A DNA stretch of 64,000 bases from a virus. Its lineage: Duplodnaviria; Heunggongvirae; Uroviricota; Caudoviricetes. The position numbers were made by a program, and so were the translations under genes. Under the pieces are notes generated by a model that made no database searches, had not been told where the DNA came from, and saw only the letters and a program-made list of their open reading frames with translations. The stretch lies in IMG/VR virus record IMGVR_UViG_2519899835_000003; one strand, given 5' to 3'. Shown here one piece after another: positions 1 through 49,600 of this stretch (position 1 is the stretch's first letter; every line of letters starts with the position of its first letter).

Positions 1-1417
1 CGGCATAGCTAAAACGCCGGAATGGGCAGCAAAAATCACCAGCATCCCGGCAGAAAAAATTATCCAGTTGGCACGAGAGATCGGTTCAGCAAAACCTGCT
101 TATATTTGTCAGGGTTGGGGGCCACAACGACATTCCAACGGCGAGCAAACGTCCCGCGCTATTGCCATGCTTTCCGTTCTCACCGGTAACGTCGGCATAA
201 ACGGCGGCAACTCAGGTGTACGCGAAGGTAGCTGGGATCTGGGGGTAGAATGGTTCCCGATGCTTGAGAACCCTGTTAAAACGCAGATTTCCGTCTTTAC
301 ATGGACAGATGCCATCGACCATGGTAAGGAAATGACCGCGACCCGTGATGGTGTTCGTGGAAAAGAAAAACTGGATGTCCCCATCAAGTTTTTATGGTGC
401 TACGCCAGTAACACATTGATCAATCAACATGGCGACATCAATCACACCCATGAGGTGCTTCAGGATGACAGCAAGTGCGAGATGATTGTTGGCATTGACC
501 ACTTCATGACGGCCTCGGCTAAGTATTGCGATATCCTGTTGCCCGACCTGATGCCAACAGAGCAAGAAGACCTTATCTCTCATGAATCTGCAGGGAATAT
601 GGGCTATGTGATCCTCGCCCAACCCGCAACCTCTGCAAAATTTGAACGCAAACCCATCTACTGGATGCTGAGTGAAGTCGCCAAACGCTTAGGACCAGAC
701 GTTTATCAAACCTTTACTGAAGGTCGCAGTCAGCATGAATGGATCAAATATCTCCATGCGAAAACGAAGGAACGTAACCCTGAGATGCCCGACTACGAGG
801 AGATGAAAACGACCGGGATCTTTAAGAAAAAATGCCCGGAAGAACACTACGTCGCTTTCCGCGCATTCCGTGAAGATCCCCAGGCAAACCCGTTGAAAAC
901 ACCTTCGGGGAAAATCGAAATTTATTCTGAACGACTGGCGAAGATTGCGGATACCTGGGAATTGAAAAAAGATGAAATTATTCATCCCCTTCCAGCTTAT
1001 ACGCCAGGTTTTGATGGCTGGGACGATCCCCTGCGGAAAACCTATCCACTGCAGTTAACGGGCTTCCACTACAAGGCGCGTACCCACTCCAGCTACGGCA
1101 ATATTGATGTGTTACAGCAGGCCTGCCCACAAGAGGTGTGGATCAACCCCATTGATGCTCAGGCTCGCGGTATCCGTCATGGCGATACCGTGCGGGTATT
1201 TAACAATAATGGAGAAATGCTGATTGCCGCAAAAGTGACTCCGCGTATTCTGCCTGGCGTTACCGCCATCGGGCAAGGTGCGTGGCTTAAAGCGGATATG
1301 TTTGGTGACCGGGTCGATCACGGCGGCAGTATCAATATTCTGACCTCTCACCGCCCTTCACCGCTGGCAAAGGGAAACCCGTCGCACAGCAATCTTGTCC
1401 AGATCGAAAAGGTTTAA
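1..1417 (+). CDS. ynfF: DMSO reductase-family molybdopterin oxidoreductase catalytic subunit, 3' portion (5' end outside window)
   Basis: ORF 68..1417 translates to the C-terminal ~450 aa of a DmsA/YnfE/YnfF-type subunit. It is followed 10 bp later by the start of the Fe-S subunit gene (MTTQYGFFIDSSRCTGCKTCELACKD), the ynfF-ynfG arrangement. Paralogue choice rests on that synteny. Confidence 0.7.
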   Translation, partial: GIAKTPEWAAKITSIPAEKIIQLAREIGSAKPAYICQGWGPQRHSNGEQTSRAIAMLSVLTGNVGINGGNSGVREGSWDLGVEWFPMLENPVKTQISVFTWTDAIDHGKEMTATRDGVRGKEKLDVPIKFLWCYASNTLINQHGDINHTHEVLQDDSKCEMIVGIDHFMTASAKYCDILLPDLMPTEQEDLISHESAGNMGYVILAQPATSAKFERKPIYWMLSEVAKRLGPDVYQTFTEGRSQHEWIKYLHAKTKERNPEMPDYEEMKTTGIFKKKCPEEHYVAFRAFREDPQANPLKTPSGKIEIYSERLAKIADTWELKKDEIIHPLPAYTPGFDGWDDPLRKTYPLQLTGFHYKARTHSSYGNIDVLQQACPQEVWINPIDAQARGIRHGDTVRVFNNNGEMLIAAKVTPRILPGVTAIGQGAWLKADMFGDRVDHGGSINILTSHRPSPLAKGNPSHSNLVQIEKV

Positions 1418-1427
1418 GGAGTAGCCC

Positions 1428-1541
1428 ATGACCACACAATATGGATTTTTTATCGATTCCAGCCGCTGTACTGGCTGTAAAACCTGCGAACTGGCGTGCA
1501 AAGATTTTAAAGTTGGTTACGTATCGTTTAAAATCAATTAG
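1428..1541 (+). pseudogene. ynfG: ynfG 5' fragment (Fe-S subunit), truncated after ~28 native codons at the prophage junction
   Basis: ATG at 1428 with the native YnfG N-terminus and first CxxCxxC ferredoxin motif; reading frame leaves recognisable YnfG sequence after CKDFK and stops at 1541. Rest of the gene is absent from the window. Confidence 0.65.
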
Positions 1542-1948
1542 ATAGCCCGTCATTTCTGCGCTCACACGTCCCAACATTGAAAAACATGCAAAGCTTTGTA
1601 AGCCGATGCAAAGCTTTGTGTGTCTCACTTTTGTCCCAATACCAATCCGAATCCACCCTTTGTCATCATTGAGAAATGGCAAGGAAGAAAAGGATGTTAC
1701 TGCACGATTTGACAAATCCGCCAGAGCTATCGCATACTGACCGCACTACAACGTCAGCGGTCAACCGCACCCGATAGCTTTGCGGCTTTTTTTATGCCTG
1801 TTTACAGGTATCGCCATATCAATGGCGGGTCGAGAGAGCCTAATACAATACCCTTTCGGGAAATACGCTCCGCCGTCTGACGCGGTAGTTGAAGCCCGCC
1901 CCCCCCACTAAGGTGGCAGTCAATACTAAAACGTCAGGAGTCATAATT

Positions 1949-2578
1949 ATGACTAATCAACTCATTCCCGTTTTCGATGGAACCATCAACAACGAACCAG
2001 TTTTACTTTGCAATGCTCGCAATCTGCACGCTTTTCTTGGTATTGGTAAAATGTTTGCTCACTGGATCAAGGACAGGCTGGGTGAATATGGATTCGTTGA
2101 AAATCAAGATTTTGTGATTGCTTGCCAAAATTGGCAAGCAAAAGGTAGAGGCGGTCACAACCGCAAGGAATACCACCTCACCCTCGACACAGCCAAAGAG
2201 CTTGCGATGGTTGAACGTAACGAAAAAGGCCGCCAGATACGCCGCTACTTCATCGAGTGCGAAAAGAAACTTCGCAACATTCAGCCAGTACAAACTGAGC
2301 AGCAATTCACAACCGAGGAAATCATCCTCCTCTGCTACATGCAACTCTGGATGGAAAAAGCACAACAACTCAGTAAGCAGCTATACCCCGTCATGAGAGA
2401 ACTGAATTCTGATTACTACGGGAAACTGTTTGATCTGGCCTACGAGACTCGTCATATAACCAACCGGACTCGCGACACATTGCTCCGCGAAGCAGCAAAA
2501 CTTGATCCCGCCAACTATATGGTGCATAGGGCCAGAAGTATGCTGGCGCAACTAAGAGCAAGACAATTTGAATTCTGA
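1949..2578 (+). CDS. AntA-family phage antirepressor-like protein
   Basis: Internal ATG of ORF 1889..2578 preceded by AGGAG. N-terminal LIPVFDG...NARNLHAFL...YHLTLDTAKELAMVE pattern recalled as the AntA/AntB domain; the C-terminal ~75 aa (EEIILLCYMQLWMEKAQ...LRARQFEF) recur in the protein at 46568..47233. Confidence 0.55.
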   Translation: MTNQLIPVFDGTINNEPVLLCNARNLHAFLGIGKMFAHWIKDRLGEYGFVENQDFVIACQNWQAKGRGGHNRKEYHLTLDTAKELAMVERNEKGRQIRRYFIECEKKLRNIQPVQTEQQFTTEEIILLCYMQLWMEKAQQLSKQLYPVMRELNSDYYGKLFDLAYETRHITNRTRDTLLREAAKLDPANYMVHRARSMLAQLRARQFEF

Positions 2579-2583
2579 AACCA

Positions 2584-2606
2584 AAGGAGCTTCGGCTCCT
2601 TTTTTC
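2584..2606 (+). terminator. Rho-independent terminator (GGAGC-TTCG-GCTCC + T run); approximate coordinates
   Basis: Perfect stem-loop followed by TTTTTT directly after the stop at 2578; the same hairpin recurs on the minus strand after the paralogue ending at 46568. Confidence 0.6.
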
Positions 2607-2625
2607 ATGCCTGAAGGAAAGGAAA

Positions 2626-2847
2626 ATGGCAGATATCATCGACAATGCCGCTGAAATCGAAGAATTGCAGCGCAATCTCTCCCTGCAAAAATACAAATCC
2701 GATAGTAATGCCCCATCTGCTACTCATTGTTGCGAGTGTGGCGATCCGATAGATGAGCGGCGACGCCTGGCTGTTCGTGGATGCCGAGCTTGCGCCAGTT
2801 GCCAGCAGGATATTGAACTTATCAACAAACAGAGAGGTGTGAAGTGA
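2626..2847 (+). CDS. TraR/DksA-family C4 zinc-finger protein
   Basis: 73 aa with CxxC...17 aa...CxxC (CCECGDPIDERRRLAVRGCRACASC), the phage TraR-like arrangement. Confidence 0.6.
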   Translation: MADIIDNAAEIEELQRNLSLQKYKSDSNAPSATHCCECGDPIDERRRLAVRGCRACASCQQDIELINKQRGVK

Positions 2848-3161
2848 ACATCAACACCACGATAACGATCGATACAGCCCTGAACACCGGCCTGGCGCTC
2901 CTTGGTTATTTCTACATCATGTTCTGCAGCGGACGATGGCTGTCACTGTTGTTCATGAAAAAATGGAATAAACGCCGTAAGCAGGAGCAACGCCAGAAGG
3001 CAATGGATGCATTTTTCGAAGCCTTCGGGATTGACAGCATGGAACCAGGGGATCCAGCTCGCGCAATCAGCAGAGGGGGCGTAGTAATCCTTGTATATCG
3101 GAGTGAAGAGAAAAATGACGATCACAAAACAACGTGTAGAAAAAATCATATATCGCCATGA
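2844..3161 (+). CDS. Hypothetical small membrane protein
   Basis: ORF with a hydrophobic N-terminal segment (LALLGYFYIMF) and start overlapping the upstream stop; 3' end overlaps the next gene so true extent is uncertain. Confidence 0.3.
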   Translation: MNINTTITIDTALNTGLALLGYFYIMFCSGRWLSLLFMKKWNKRRKQEQRQKAMDAFFEAFGIDSMEPGDPARAISRGGVVILVYRSEEKNDDHKTTCRKNHISP

Positions 3162-3429
3162 AATGGGACTGAACAGCGATGTCACTGCCGAAGAGGTTTA
3201 TGACCTGGCTGTACTGGCGCTGAATTTATCAAATATCGCAAACCTGAAGCGATACGAGCTTGATATGGATTGTTGTGACTCGTTCGGTCAGGATTGTGGC
3301 GCTGACATGACTGAAGATTCTGATGGCGATTATGTTCTGTTTGATGACGTGGTTAAGTTGTTTGAGTTTGATACAACCACTCAAAAGTTAGAAATCCCGG
3401 CAAAGGAGGCTGCCAGTGAGCAAGATTGA
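3115..3429 (+). CDS. Hypothetical acidic protein
   Basis: Internal ATG of ORF 3091..3429; acidic C-terminal half. No motif recognised. Confidence 0.35.
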   Translation: MTITKQRVEKIIYRHEMGLNSDVTAEEVYDLAVLALNLSNIANLKRYELDMDCCDSFGQDCGADMTEDSDGDYVLFDDVVKLFEFDTTTQKLEIPAKEAASEQD

Positions 3430-4102
3430 CTATCAGGCACTGCGCGAGGCGGCGGAACAGGCAACGCAAGATGAATGGGTAGCATATATTTTGCCGGGTC
3501 ATAACGGCATTTATCCTGCGCGCACGTCTGAGGGTAGGCATTGCGGATACTTTATTGACTGGCCTGGCATCTGTCAGGGGCGGGAGAGCATCAACATGAG
3601 CATCAGAACCTACGCAGTGAATTGCAATGACGCATGGCTAAACACCGAAGGTGATGACATCTCCGGCTCATACGTTAAGTACAAAGACCATCAGGAAGTG
3701 GTTGCCGCTCTTGAGGCCAAGTGCGCGGCGCTGGCAGCGGAGAATGCGGGAATAAAGTCTGCAATTCCAGAATCACGGGATATTGAGGATGACAATGACA
3801 ATATGGATGACGTATCTCTCGCGGAAGACTTCGGGTTCAATCATGCAATAGAACGGATGAGGAGACAGATACCTGAAACGCCAACCACTGATGCTTTCCT
3901 GGCTGAAGTCCGGGCGCAGGGGGTGGATGCTGCTATAGAAGCTGCAAAAAATCTGGTGGCCCAAGAATATGAGTATAAGGATTTCAAAGCGGCGCAGAGT
4001 GATTGCTGTATGCACCCTGGTTCAGACCTGGTAGGGAAGGTTGAAATGACTGAGTGGTTAGTTGACTTTGCTGCCCAGCTTCGCAAAGGAGGCAACCAGT
4101 GA
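3416..4102 (+). CDS. Ead/Ea22-like protein
   Basis: GTG start after AAGGAGG; N-terminus MSKIDYQALREAAEQATQ is the signature start of lambda Ea22-like proteins. Confidence 0.6.
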   Translation: MSKIDYQALREAAEQATQDEWVAYILPGHNGIYPARTSEGRHCGYFIDWPGICQGRESINMSIRTYAVNCNDAWLNTEGDDISGSYVKYKDHQEVVAALEAKCAALAAENAGIKSAIPESRDIEDDNDNMDDVSLAEDFGFNHAIERMRRQIPETPTTDAFLAEVRAQGVDAAIEAAKNLVAQEYEYKDFKAAQSDCCMHPGSDLVGKVEMTEWLVDFAAQLRKGGNQ

Positions 4103-19057: not shown

Positions 19058-19792
19058 TCAGAATTTCAGGCCAATGCCAGCAGTAACGCCACTCGTGCGC
19101 CAGTCGCCAGAGCCGGAACCTTCGTAAGCCACATCCAGTGTAACACTCTCATTCAGGTTAAACTGTGCACCTGCAGCCCACGCAAGGGAGGTTTTTTTCG
19201 TGCTGTTGCTTTCAGAAAATCCGCCACTACTGTTAATATTGTCCTTAATTTTCAGGTCAGCGCTAACTTTAGCAACGCCCATCCCTGCCATCGCATATAA
19301 ACTCATGTACTGATTAACCCGCCATGAAGGCCCCGCTAACAGACTCCAGTAATTCGCCCTGATATCCGTTCTGGCAGAAGCTGCCGGATTCTTAATCTTC
19401 CTGGTATGATCGGCTGACTGCACATCAATAAATGTCTGTGAGTTAGTGAGAGAACGCGTCCATGTAAAAGAGGTGATAACGCCAAAATCATCCGTTATCT
19501 CGTAGCGATACCTGATATTAATGCCCTGTGGATTTTTATCCTTGCCTTCATATCCACTGACCCGACCATCTGTATATTCGCCCAATGAAGAAAAGTAGTT
19601 TCTGTTGACGAAATGACTGAAAGTCTCCCTGTTATGAGCAGTCGCATCCTTTACAAAATCCTTCAGTCCCGGAAACTGAAAGTGCGCATACCCCAGAGAA
19701 ATTGTATGCTCTCCTTCTGCTGCATGTGCAGATAAATTTACACAGGCAATCCCGGAGATTGCACACACAACCAGTGTTGCTATACTCTTCAT
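19058..19792 (-). CDS. lom: Lom/Ail/OmpX-family outer-membrane protein
   Basis: Signal peptide plus Ail/Lom-type beta-barrel sequence ending ...VTAGIGLKF; located beside tail genes as in lambda. Hairpin plus T run downstream near 19,013-19,037. Confidence 0.85.
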   Translation of the reverse strand: MKSIATLVVCAISGIACVNLSAHAAEGEHTISLGYAHFQFPGLKDFVKDATAHNRETFSHFVNRNYFSSLGEYTDGRVSGYEGKDKNPQGINIRYRYEITDDFGVITSFTWTRSLTNSQTFIDVQSADHTRKIKNPAASARTDIRANYWSLLAGPSWRVNQYMSLYAMAGMGVAKVSADLKIKDNINSSGGFSESNSTKKTSLAWAAGAQFNLNESVTLDVAYEGSGSGDWRTSGVTAGIGLKF

Positions 19793-42133: not shown

Positions 42134-42619
42134 GAATCCTCCCGGCCGGGATAATATTGTGAGTAAAATAAGGAGCGGGCTGAAGTCCGGAAGTTACAGG
42201 ACAATGGCAGAAGGGAGACTACAGCCCGCAATTCGAAAAAGGTCGCGCAGTTGCGCAGAGTGATTACTATGGGGTATTATTCGCCAGCTGAAATATTACT
42301 TCACGTTTCATTGTTCATTCCTTGCCGCCCGCGTCTCCCAGCGCGGGCTTTTTTGTCCATAAGAAAGCCCCTCCGGAGAGGGGCTGGAGAGTGGCGCTAT
42401 GTGCCATTGCATGGTGCCGGGTGCCTCCCGGTGAGTTCAGCCCGGTGCCACTAAACCCGCGTCATTCTCGTTTTGATAATCAGAGATTATACCGTCACCA
42501 GTCGCCCCTCCGCTCAGGGGGATTCACCATGCAGTTTTTTCTAACAAATTCTCATCCGGGCAGACAACATTCAACTGACTTAATTGTGAGGTATGTAACA
42601 TTCCCGTTGAACGGATACA

Positions 42620-45649: not shown

Positions 45650-45923
45650 AATGACGCCCTCGAGTGGTTTCTTAATAACTCACCACCGACGACGCCAATC
45701 GTCTGGTGGTGAACTGTGCAGGGTTGGCGTAACCGGGAAACCGACCGGCGCGGATCTCTCCGCCCCCACACAGCCCACCATAATTCAGATGTGCGCGTGC
45801 ATACGACAATAAAAAACACGCTCGCGGCGTGTATCTGTCGCGGTCTCTATCCAGGACGCCAATCCCGACGCCAGATTTTGCTGGCGCGTGAGGAATATAG
45901 CCCCGAATAAATCATCACGTCAA

Positions 45924-46567: not shown

Positions 46568-47233
46568 TCAGAATTCAAATTGTCTTGCCCGCAGGCTTTT
46601 CAGCATTGGCATGGCCCGCTGGATAACGGAACTTGACATGTCGAGACGTGTTACCTCCCTCAGTAGCGCGTCTCTGTTCTTCGTCACCATGTAGATGGTC
46701 TCAAACGCAATGTCATACAGCTTGTTCGTGTATGAGGAGTTCAGCTCTTTCATAATGGGATACAGGTGTTTGCTGATGTCCTGGGCTTTTTCCATCCAGA
46801 GCTGCATGTAGCAAAGGAGGATGATTTCTTCGGCTGTGAATTGTGGCTGAATCTGCGGCTGCTGTTCGGTTGGTGCTGTTTTTCCCTGGCTGAAATAGCA
46901 GTCTTCCAGTTTTTCGAATACCTCCCACGCCCGATCGGTTTCGAGCATTTTTGCGTGACGGGCTGCGCCGCGTTCTGTCCAGAGGATGAGGGAGCGGGCA
47001 TTTTTACCAACTAACCCGATTGTTTCGGGTCTGTTCTTAAACTCGCGTAATTCGTTTTTTTCAATTTTAAAGTAATGCTTTCCGGGCATGAATCGCGTCG
47101 TGTTGTTCAGAAAGTTATCAGAAATGTTTTTGATTTTTGTTCCGTAAAGGTGAGCCAACAGTTCAGTAGTAATTACGGGGATCTGGTTATAGGTAACAGG
47201 GGAAAGGTTTTCGACAGAAATTTGAACAGCCAT
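46568..47233 (-). CDS. ORF6N-domain antirepressor paralogue 2 (C-terminal domain shared with 1949..2578)
   Basis: Same N-terminal domain as 44966..45649; C-terminal EEIILLCYMQLWMEKAQ...LRARQFEF plus the identical downstream terminator hairpin shared with the left-arm gene. Confidence 0.6.
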   Translation of the reverse strand: MAVQISVENLSPVTYNQIPVITTELLAHLYGTKIKNISDNFLNNTTRFMPGKHYFKIEKNELREFKNRPETIGLVGKNARSLILWTERGAARHAKMLETDRAWEVFEKLEDCYFSQGKTAPTEQQPQIQPQFTAEEIILLCYMQLWMEKAQDISKHLYPIMKELNSSYTNKLYDIAFETIYMVTKNRDALLREVTRLDMSSSVIQRAMPMLKSLRARQFEF

Positions 47234-47575
47234 AATGACCTCGCGTTTCGATAATTTTTACCTCGCCACCGTCAGGTGCTAATCATCGTGGTGGCGAACT
47301 GTGCGGGGTTAGCACTACCGGTCGAAACATCCGGCGAGCCTTTCGGCTCCCCCACACAGCCCGCCATAAATCGCGAATGTGACTGTGCTTAGCGCATAAA
47401 AAAACCGCCAGCGCGGTTATGCACCGTTTCGATATCCGGGGTGCTAATCCCGACGCCAGGTTTTGCTGGCGCGTGAGGAATATAGCCCCGAACACGCGAC
47501 GTTGTCAAACTGATGGCATTGCAGATCCCTACGCAATGTAACACTATGTGTTATACATTAATAACGGAACAAAAA

Positions 47576-47946
47576 ATGCGCATTTTTAAAAACGCCTGGT
47601 TTGAGCGATTTGCACGCAAAACAAAATATCCGACCAATCACTGCGCGAAATTGTTAAACAGGCTGATAACGGGCTTATCTCAGCAAACCTGGGTAACGGC
47701 GTTATCAAGCAACGTCTGCCACGAGTCGGTGGCGGCAAATCTGGCGGTTATCGCACAATCATTTTCTATCGCGTCGGCACAAGGGCCTTTTTCGTATATG
47801 CATACGCAAAAAATGAACGTGAAAATATAACCGCTACTGCGGAAAGTGCATTTCGGAAGGCGGCTCCTCACGTACTCAATCTAACAGATGAACAACTGGC
47901 ACAACTGATTCTACAGGGTCAGTTTACGGAGGTACCCAATGAGTAA
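47576..47946 (+). pseudogene. HigB/RelE-family type II toxin, interrupted by a 1-nt frameshift in an A-run near 47,618-47,626
   Basis: Frame 1 gives MRIFKNAWFERFARKTKY... then unrelated sequence; the adjacent frame gives ...QSLREIVKQADNGLISANLGNGVIKQRLPRVGGGKSGGYRTIIFYRVGTRAFFVYAYAKNEREN...EVPNE, ending in ATGAGTAA overlap with the antitoxin start. Confidence 0.55.
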
Positions 47947-48256
47947 AAATTACCGCAGTGATGCGCTTGCATCCGTACATGAAATGATGGAATCGCTTCA
48001 TGATATCGGCGCAGTAACGAAACAGACTATGCGAGAATTCGATGAAACTTGTCTCCAGCCAGCGCCGGTAATGTCTCCGGAAAGGATCCGTGCACTGCGC
48101 GAACGAGAGCATCTGTCTCAACCTGTTTTTGCCAGATACCTCAACGTCAGTAAAAACCTGATATCAGACTGGGAACGTGGTGTAAAACGGCCGGGAGGTG
48201 CCGCTCTTCGCCTTCTTTCAGTCGTAGAGAAAAACGGAATCCAGGTAATATCATGA
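47939..48256 (+). CDS. HTH XRE-family antitoxin (HigA-like)
   Basis: 105 aa with C-terminal HTH (LSQPVFARYLNVSKNLISDWERGVKRP); start overlaps the toxin stop. Confidence 0.65.
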   Translation: MSKNYRSDALASVHEMMESLHDIGAVTKQTMREFDETCLQPAPVMSPERIRALREREHLSQPVFARYLNVSKNLISDWERGVKRPGGAALRLLSVVEKNGIQVIS

Positions 48257-48269
48257 TACTCCAATACAA

Positions 48270-48292
48270 CAAAACCCGCCGAAGCGGGTTTT
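48270..48292. terminator. Bidirectional hairpin terminator between convergent genes (approximate)
   Basis: AAAACCCGC-CGAA-GCGGGTTTT with A run before and T run after. Confidence 0.45.
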
Positions 48293-48306: not shown

Positions 48307-48792
48307 TTAGTTTTGCTGTTCTATTTTAAGCTTGATAGTTTCATACAAAACAATAGTTGCGCCTGTTTTACATAATTCCCGGCTGTCATACGCACGAGAC
48401 CAATAACACAACCAGTTCTCGAGATCTTCTCGAGTATAGGTTTTGCAGGCCAGTCCCTCTGCCATTTCCACGATTTCATCGCCTGGTGCTGTTAACTCAT
48501 AGCCATTCAACAACAAGAAGACATAACCAGCCATCATAGCTGTTCGTTTGTTTGCATTAGCAAATGGATGATTCTGAATCAGACTTTCAATCAATACTGA
48601 TGCCAGTACAAACATGTCATTAGTCTGTTCATACCATCGAACCATGCTGGGACGAGACTGAGAAGAACTTAAATTATCAACACTCAGCACACTAACAGGT
48701 TCATCTGGTGTTTGAAGCTCAATTAAAAGGCGATTAATTTCGGTAAGATCATCAAACGAAAGGTAGTGCACTCCTTCAACAATCTCAGCCAT
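48307..48792 (-). CDS. Doc (death-on-curing)/Fic-family toxin
   Basis: HPFANANKRTAMMAGYVFLLLNGY matches the Doc motif H-x-F-x-(D/N)-A-N-K-R. Confidence 0.6.
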   Translation of the reverse strand: MAEIVEGVHYLSFDDLTEINRLLIELQTPDEPVSVLSVDNLSSSQSRPSMVRWYEQTNDMFVLASVLIESLIQNHPFANANKRTAMMAGYVFLLLNGYELTAPGDEIVEMAEGLACKTYTREDLENWLCYWSRAYDSRELCKTGATIVLYETIKLKIEQQN

Positions 48793-48810
48793 AGAGCACA
48801 ATACCCATCA

Positions 48811-48990
48811 TTACACTTTTGAAAGTTCTTCCATTGCCTTCTCGTAACGAGAAAAACCGAAATCGAAAGCATTTTTCACCTGCTCACGATGAGTGCAATT
48901 TTCATCGATAGCCGGGCGCGGAGCTGCCACAACGCTTTTATCGCGAGGGGGAATAGTCAATCGCGGGTGTTTTTTTAGTGCGTAGCTCAT
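48811..48990 (-). CDS. Putative cognate antitoxin of the Doc-family toxin
   Basis: 59-aa ORF immediately upstream on the same strand with a 6-nt gap; no family motif recognised, call by genetic context. Confidence 0.35.
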   Translation of the reverse strand: MSYALKKHPRLTIPPRDKSVVAAPRPAIDENCTHREQVKNAFDFGFSRYEKAMEELSKV

Positions 48991-49199
48991 TGGGTGTACC
49001 CTTACTTCTCCGTCCTGTTCTTTAACAAAAATCAAGTCAATACAAAATTAGTCAGGCTAATGTTGTTAGCATAGCCTAATACCAATCGTATTCACAACCA
49101 CAGTAAGTGAAAAAACCCGCCGAAGCGGGTTAAGTGCGGGTGCGTTGAGGATGCCTGACACATCAGAGGTGGCGAGGGATTTCTCCCTCGCCGGGTCTC

Positions 49200-49412
49200 T
49201 TACTCCTCAGGTTCGTAAGCTGTGAAGACAGCAACCTCCGTCTGACCGGTTCGGATTCGTACCTCGCATAGGTCTTTCCTCGTTACCAGTGCCGTCACTA
49301 CGACGGTAATACAGATGACGATCAGGGCGACTAACATCGCCTTTTGCTGCTTCATAGCCTGCTTCTCCTTGCCTTTCGGCGCGTAAGAGGCTAACCTACA
49401 TGTGTCTAGCAT
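49200..49412 (-). CDS. hok: mok/hok type I toxin locus (Hok toxin = 49200..49355, in-frame Mok extension to 49412)
   Basis: MKQQKAMLVALIVICITVVVTALVTRKDLCEVRIRTGQTEVAVFTAYEPEE is a canonical Hok/Gef; upstream in-frame MLDTCRLASYAPKGKEKQA mirrors mokC. Hairpin plus T run downstream near 49,112-49,132. Confidence 0.8.
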   Translation of the reverse strand: MLDTCRLASYAPKGKEKQAMKQQKAMLVALIVICITVVVTALVTRKDLCEVRIRTGQTEVAVFTAYEPEE

Positions 49413-49600
49413 GAAATTGGCCTCAGATTAATGTTAGGCGTCTTGCAGGACGCGTAATGTTAACTGGGGTTTTTCTCTGTCTGCCTTACGGTGGCATGCC
49501 CGAGGCAGACAGCCTCAAGCACCCGCAGCAATTCTACTTAACTCTCGCTTTACCGCAAACCGTTTTTACCCGATATGGGAATTCCCATATCGTAATGAAT

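Follow-up and report, generated by a model that had tools for sequence, protein, structure and literature searches.

The window considered here, a 64,000-nucleotide stretch of DNA from a tailed virus (Caudoviricetes; IMG/VR record IMGVR_UViG_2519899835_000003), corresponds approximately to one short-tailed lambdoid prophage of E. coli, situated between ynfF and intD. A toxin-antitoxin (TA) pair is located between its replication/DUF551 block and ORF6N-NinB, transcribed in the direction opposite to the phage early-right genes, with what reads as a higB-2-like (PF06296) toxin pseudogene at 47576-47946 (+ strand) and an intact higA-2-like antitoxin gene at 47939-48256 (+). Neighbouring the pair are a toxin gene of the Doc/Fic family, preceded by a small ORF, and hok/sok. 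The Doc/Fic-family toxin gene occupies 48307-48801 (−), the small upstream ORF, which is of unknown function (phrog_2208), 48811-49035 (−), and hokD with sok RNA approximately 49200-49524 (−), these modules spanning 48307-49524; together with the pair they put three TA or TA-like loci side by side in the early region of the prophage. Its late (tail/lom) region has a second annotated gene of the Hok/Gef family at approximately 19270-19410 (−), as mapped from FORC_069 2515776-2515916.

A cassette of isrK sRNA, C4 antisense RNA and c4-a1b1 target is present in two copies, 47287-47485 (−) and 45702-45900 (−), with Rfam scores above gathering, and each copy is upstream of an antirepressor gene, ORF6N (46568-47233) in one case and, further on, Ant in the other. 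Just upstream of the first isrK, and divergent from the toxin operon, is a near-consensus sigma-70 promoter on the − strand (47508-47479, 11/12 matches). Between the Q antiterminator gene and a nanS-p-like esterase gene Rfam finds a full-length match (165 bits) to the sRNA STnc100 at 42355-42560 (−); this is the site where Stx phages carry stx, and stx genes are absent from the window.

The toxin gene, of the HigB-2-type RelE family PF06296, starts at ATG 47576. Frame 0 from that codon reads MRIFKNAWFERFARKTKYPTNH... and ends at TAA 47828-47830, giving a product of 84 aa of which only the first 15 are native, the toxin frame being broken after codon 15. The remainder of the toxin is in the frame offset by +2, where ...KISDQSLREIVKQADNGLISANLG...FTEVPNE is followed by the stop TAA 47944-47946; the stretch of this downstream frame leading to the same FTEVPNE and stop can also be quoted as ...KISDQSLREIVKQADNGLISANLGNGVIKQRLPRVGGGKSGGYRTIIFYRVGTRAFFVYAYAKNE... 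An initial annotation of this DNA had proposed a HigB-like toxin inactivated by a one-base frameshift in an A-run, with the complete toxin C-terminus in the adjacent frame and ending in the overlap with the antitoxin, and on both points it is borne out: frame 0 closes at 47830, a repaired ORF gives a full PF06296 match, and TAA 47944-47946 lies inside ATGAGTAA. It had placed the switch at CGCAAAACAAAAT, which spans 47615-47627. The location stands and can be refined, with alignments to intact alleles assigning the loss to the first A-run of that sequence and not the second: one A of an ancestral A5 run is gone, and what remains is A4 at 47618-47621 (+), in codons 15-16. That the ancestral run was A5 follows from intact E. 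coli alleles (P0001 and P0121), which read CGC AAA AAC AAA ATA (RKNKI; protein ...FARKNKISDQ) where the window has CGCAAAACAAAATA. The window's toxin gene is accordingly 371 nt, against 372 nt in the intact alleles L019, L027 and L008. Adding one A does restore the gene as had been suggested, to 123 codons (123 aa) rather than the approximately 122 first estimated.

With that single A supplied, the 123-aa ORF matches profile positions 1-120 of the 120 in Pfam PF06296 ‘RelE’ (E 2e-45, 154 bits), far over the family cut-off (gathering score) of 27 bits. The actual 84-aa product of frame 0 (47576-47830, +), which has none of the catalytic residues, scores 20.5 bits and is under that cut-off. NCBIfam and PADLOC matched no family to the toxin. 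Its best solved match by sequence is V. cholerae HigB-2, and the fold agrees: for the 98%-identical intact allele P0001 an AF2 model (pLDDT 86.6) has as its top 10 Foldseek PDB matches exclusively HigB2 chains, with probability 1.00 and TM 0.5-0.6. V. cholerae HigB-2 belongs to PF06296 and is a ribosome-dependent mRNase whose gene is upstream of that of its antitoxin (PMC11980606). Its residues R51, R64, Y82 and K84 are experimentally important or catalytic (PMC5416850), and with these align R47, R60, Y77 and K79 of the window's toxin, all four encoded 3′ of the frameshift. As far as sequence and modelled fold speak to it, the ‘HigB-like’ label is accurate, and the more exact description is a HigBA-2-type module with a pseudogene toxin.

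The out-of-frame C-terminal remnant (47608-47946, +) encodes residues 12-123, including R47, R60, Y77 and K79, and has no ATG, GTG or TTG start in its frame. Since all four catalytic-residue equivalents are downstream of the lesion and in a frame without a usable start codon, the toxin gene, judged by its reading frames, is a null allele, its frame broken and its catalytic part beyond any canonical start codon. By the same reading it is a PF06296 pseudogene and not a functional member of the family; the Pfam match concerns coding potential, not the product made. RefSeq presents the matter otherwise. WP_226867305.1 (NZ_CP023061.1 and others) is a 112-aa toxin CDS starting at ATT 47608 (window 47608-47946, +) with no pseudogene flag, and other degraded alleles are annotated as ‘toxins’ of 68, 85, 98, 102 or 104 aa. 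The 112-aa ATT CDS is probably an annotation artefact, and TA censuses based on annotation would miscount such degraded loci as intact pairs.

The antitoxin had been described as intact and it is so: 47939-48256 (+) is an ORF of 105 aa with a helix-turn-helix (HTH), comprising an N-terminal extension of approximately 44 residues and then an XRE-type HTH at residues 45-99. These latter residues match V. cholerae HigA-2 residues 39-93 (E 8e-8), and Pfam HTH_3 and HTH_31 also match; the 44-residue extension shows no detectable similarity to HigA-2 residues 1-36. Toxin stop and antitoxin start overlap by 8 nt, sharing ATGAGTAA at 47939-47946, and a Shine-Dalgarno sequence, GGAGG at 47928-47932 (+), is 6 nt before the antitoxin ATG. 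Ribosomes on the frame-0 toxin ORF now stop 109 nt upstream of the antitoxin, and we infer from its own GGAGG that the antitoxin would be translated independently of the dead toxin ORF. The signals for transcription are less sharply drawn. On reading the sequence a possible promoter/operator can be picked out at 47537-47557 (+), with an extended −10-like TGtTATACA (47549-47557) overlapping an inverted repeat TAACAC/GTGTTA; a promoter scan called no + strand promoter for the toxin-antitoxin operon, and an inverted-repeat search upstream of the operon returned A/T-rich palindromes around the start codon only. Between the convergent antitoxin and Doc-family genes lies the GC-rich hairpin AAAACCCGCTTCGGCGGGTTTT (48271-48292), a probable bidirectional terminator. 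In FORC_069 the toxin gene is in single copy, with no second copy at megablast sensitivity, which makes the antitoxin there an orphan.

Searching with the repaired protein retrieved 123-aa E. coli proteins at 98% identity (P0001). One locus, L019 (protein P0121), has the window's exact antitoxin together with an uninterrupted 372-nt toxin gene; L027 likewise has the identical antitoxin beside a 372-nt toxin gene. The window differs from L019 at three places: A5 to A4, a synonymous G-to-A at Q21 (47637) and an A-to-C at 47840 (+), a would-be E89A at a position with conservation of 90% or more across the family, found in dead alleles only. Comparison with orthologous loci had been recommended at the outset as the means of discovering whether this is just a normal, shorter gene with no toxin domain in the other frame. 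It is not: the orthologues are single 123-codon ORFs. In its first 36 codons the antitoxin gene agrees exactly with that of the partner of intact toxin P0001. There is also a mosaic breakpoint within the antitoxin gene (window 47939-48256 compared with L008 4365-4685), the first 108 nt being identical to the P0001-paired allele and the identity thereafter being approximately 80%, with mostly synonymous changes.

How widely is the lesion distributed? The 901-nt region is 100% identical in 6 complete genomes; for the toxin gene by itself every base agrees in 8, the old laboratory strain ML35 among them. Other carriers of the A4 lesion are 17 O104:H4 genomes, phage PhiR12_3 and several unrelated strains. 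Exact-protein counts put the 84-aa product on 188 contigs, its O104:H4 counterpart on 210, and intact 123-aa forms on 654, 272, 114, 112 and 18 contigs. The allele census was assembled from these exact-protein contig counts together with match lengths from a toxin-only megablast, which found the toxin gene in 48 of 5,426 complete E. coli genomes; the 901-nt query matched 206 genomes, the extras relative to the 48 being an 84%-identical sister clade and isrK-only matches. Degraded alleles number 31 within the close clade (29 with A4, and 2 with A5 plus two other deletions), beside 6 of intact length and 1 truncated, and the genomes carrying the gene include a further 10 with divergent alleles of intact length. 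An exact allele census with short queries was dropped, the linked single-nucleotide polymorphisms (SNPs) being too near the A-run for a 28-mer seed. The plasmid collection gave no match.

Loss of frame has occurred more than once in this toxin gene. Four independent 1-nt indels can be distinguished, three of them deletions (that in the A-run, delta-A269 and delta-C287) and one an insertion that makes G4 into G5 in the sister clade. That TA clade, of 84% DNA identity, has kept its toxin frame in O157:H7 (L035 1538-1909), and its members in GE3 and 88-3493 (L036 638-1010 and L037 638-1010) have the independent G4 to G5 frameshift in GATAAGGGGATC, with the antitoxin WP_000042395.1 unchanged. At alignment column 287 (window 47861) nine fetched alleles lack the C, O104:H4 genomes supplying four of the nine, and in phage PhiR12_3 (L034) this C is changed to T (A96V), one position with two different mutations. 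Private substitutions number 6 nonsynonymous and 2 synonymous in degraded alleles against 2 and 11 in intact ones (Fisher p 0.018), and those of dead alleles at invariant or nearly invariant positions include F12L, R14H and E89A. The comparison provides a signal that would reflect relaxed selection on the dead toxin alleles, with few events behind it and a genealogy blurred by recombination or recurrence. The antitoxin has 0 nonsynonymous and 3 synonymous changes among the loci compared, and WP_000042397.1 is identical in every degraded locus fetched and examined. Combinations of lesions, A4 or A5 with the others, fail the four-gamete test, a result that would fit recombination among lambdoid prophages (cf. 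the breakpoint inside the antitoxin gene).

For the missing base itself three kinds of cause had been envisaged at the start: an error of sequencing or assembly, slippage-prone phase variation, and a genuine inactivating mutation leaving an orphan antitoxin. If it were an error, the true genome would have A5 and the toxin would be intact. Homopolymer miscalls are indeed a common type of sequencing error and just one base of an A-run is affected, but 4-5 bases make a short run for miscalls of a systematic kind, and A4 is linked in most of its alleles to a synonymous SNP that is in no A5 allele. Because the same toxin gene is present in 8 complete genomes from different projects and independent assemblies, with A4 recurring in the O104:H4 genomes, in several other strains and in a phage genome, and the exact 84-aa product being on 188 contigs, an error is excluded for practical purposes. 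Phase variation, with slipped-strand mispairing in the A-run reversibly switching the toxin on and off, can draw on the existence of both A4 and A5 alleles in the species, and recurrent mutation could explain the four-gamete failure. Yet prophage recombination explains that failure too, with a breakpoint at hand inside the antitoxin gene, and known contingency homopolymers are longer than 4-5 nt. Neither a long tract nor heterogeneity of length within clones, the marks of a contingency locus, was found among the 17 O104:H4 and 8 window-type genomes: all 17 of the former have a toxin gene of 370 nt and all 8 of the latter one of 371 nt. Further, the A4 alleles gather more indels and nonsynonymous changes, so that the OFF state is not being reverted under selection. 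The short run, the uniform lengths within clones and the synonymous SNP linked to most A4 alleles leave phase variation unsupported and, to our minds, extremely improbable. Of the three causes, these findings single out the genuine inactivating mutation.

A further rival is that an active toxin is made after all, through recoding or an alternative start. A −1 slippage of tRNA-Lys on A_AAA (47623-47626) would yield ...ARKTKISDQ..., and such a shift at ACA AAA, with the tRNA re-pairing one base back, restores the frame exactly, making a trace of full-length protein possible; initiation at ATT 47608 would give 112 aa, and PGAP annotates that CDS in all the identical genomes. Against recoding, the hallmarks of programmed −1 frameshifting were sought and did not appear: there is no slippery heptamer of the X_XXY_YYZ type, the next 80 nt show no folding advantage over shuffled sequence (z +0.5), and in place of a conserved two-frame layout the homologues are single ORFs. 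The downstream frame of A4 lineages has, moreover, acquired extra indels and E89A. Nor does the ATT fare better. Initiation at this codon is very rare in E. coli, no Shine-Dalgarno sequence precedes it here, and the 112-aa product would be without beta-1 and most of alpha-1, which the P0001 model places within residues 2-15, and without the invariant K5-R11 segment included in them. We would accord active toxin by either route a very small chance.

Much the best explanation, and one that we hold to be very probable, is that the toxin is dead by a genuine, inherited deletion of one A while the antitoxin persists intact as an orphan, a single case of recurrent toxin-first decay among E. coli prophages. 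On this reading the locus is a type II TA operon of the HigBA-2 kind, with a PF06296 RelE-fold toxin first and an HTH antitoxin second, a moron that the lambdoid prophage carries in its early-right region. By analogy with V. cholerae HigBA-2 an intact toxin would act on the ribosome to cleave mRNA, and an antitoxin dimer would bind the operator, repress the operon and neutralise the toxin via its N-terminal segment. The change of A5 to A4 at codons 15-16 has reduced the output from ATG 47576 to a nonsense peptide of 84 aa, 15 of them native, and the antitoxin, having a strong ribosome-binding site of its own, stays intact as an orphan. Chromosomal TA modules as a rule decay in this order, the toxin being inactivated before the antitoxin is lost (Belot et al. 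2026, PMC13617665), and E. coli has orphan antitoxins in abundance (PMC10790755). The finding is genuine but unremarkable, toxin-first TA decay being already known, though no published description of this E. coli prophage module was found in the literature searched. What it offers is a clear example, and one that can be dated, of a prophage TA module decaying toxin first, with four independent single-base indels, a signal of relaxed selection and an unchanged antitoxin, and it has little weight beyond careful annotation.

A question with some reach is nevertheless posed by it: are prophage orphan antitoxins kept to disarm related toxins? Lambdoid prophages might selectively keep the orphan HigA-2-like antitoxin as an anti-addiction or counter-defence factor against intact HigB-2-type toxins of competing prophages or of host abortive-infection modules. 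The idea fits in that the antitoxin is identical in all the dead-toxin loci fetched and examined, that its putative toxin-binding N-terminus is identical to that of an antitoxin paired with a live toxin, and that phage PhiR12_3 carries the arrangement of dead toxin and live antitoxin. As things stand we consider it doubtful; the data are compatible with retention of the antitoxin by selection, though far too thin to establish it.

Set beside known systems, the decay has its nearest parallels in the studies of toxin-first erosion (PMC13617665, PMC10790755), where likewise small lesions pseudogenise the toxin, the antitoxin remains intact and the events are independent across lineages; these studies dealt with other species or were a broad survey of E. 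coli. The closest relatives of the module itself are the intact E. coli prophage alleles, P0121/WP_077168034.1 with WP_000042397.1, P0001/WP_033805720.1 with WP_033805719.1 and, in O157:H7, WP_001217944.1 with WP_000042395.1. Their locus is the same as the window's, between the replication/DUF551 region and ORF6N-NinB of lambdoid prophages, and they are uninterrupted 372-nt genes, from which the window's departs by minus one A and plus E89A. The characterised counterpart is V. cholerae HigBA-2 (HigB-2 VCA0468 family; structures 5JA8, 5JAA and 8A0X). The two differ in several respects: identity of HigB-2 to the window's toxin is only approximately 22%, the V. cholerae module sits in the superintegron whereas the window's is in a lambdoid prophage of E. 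coli, the neutralising segment of HigA-2 has no detected similarity to the window's antitoxin N-terminus, and the toxin gene here is frameshifted and dead. They nonetheless have in common the Pfam family of the repaired toxin, the order of toxin first and antitoxin second in the operon, the equivalents of the catalytic residues, the standing of best solved match by both sequence and fold, and a homologous antitoxin HTH preceded by an N-terminal extension of similar length.
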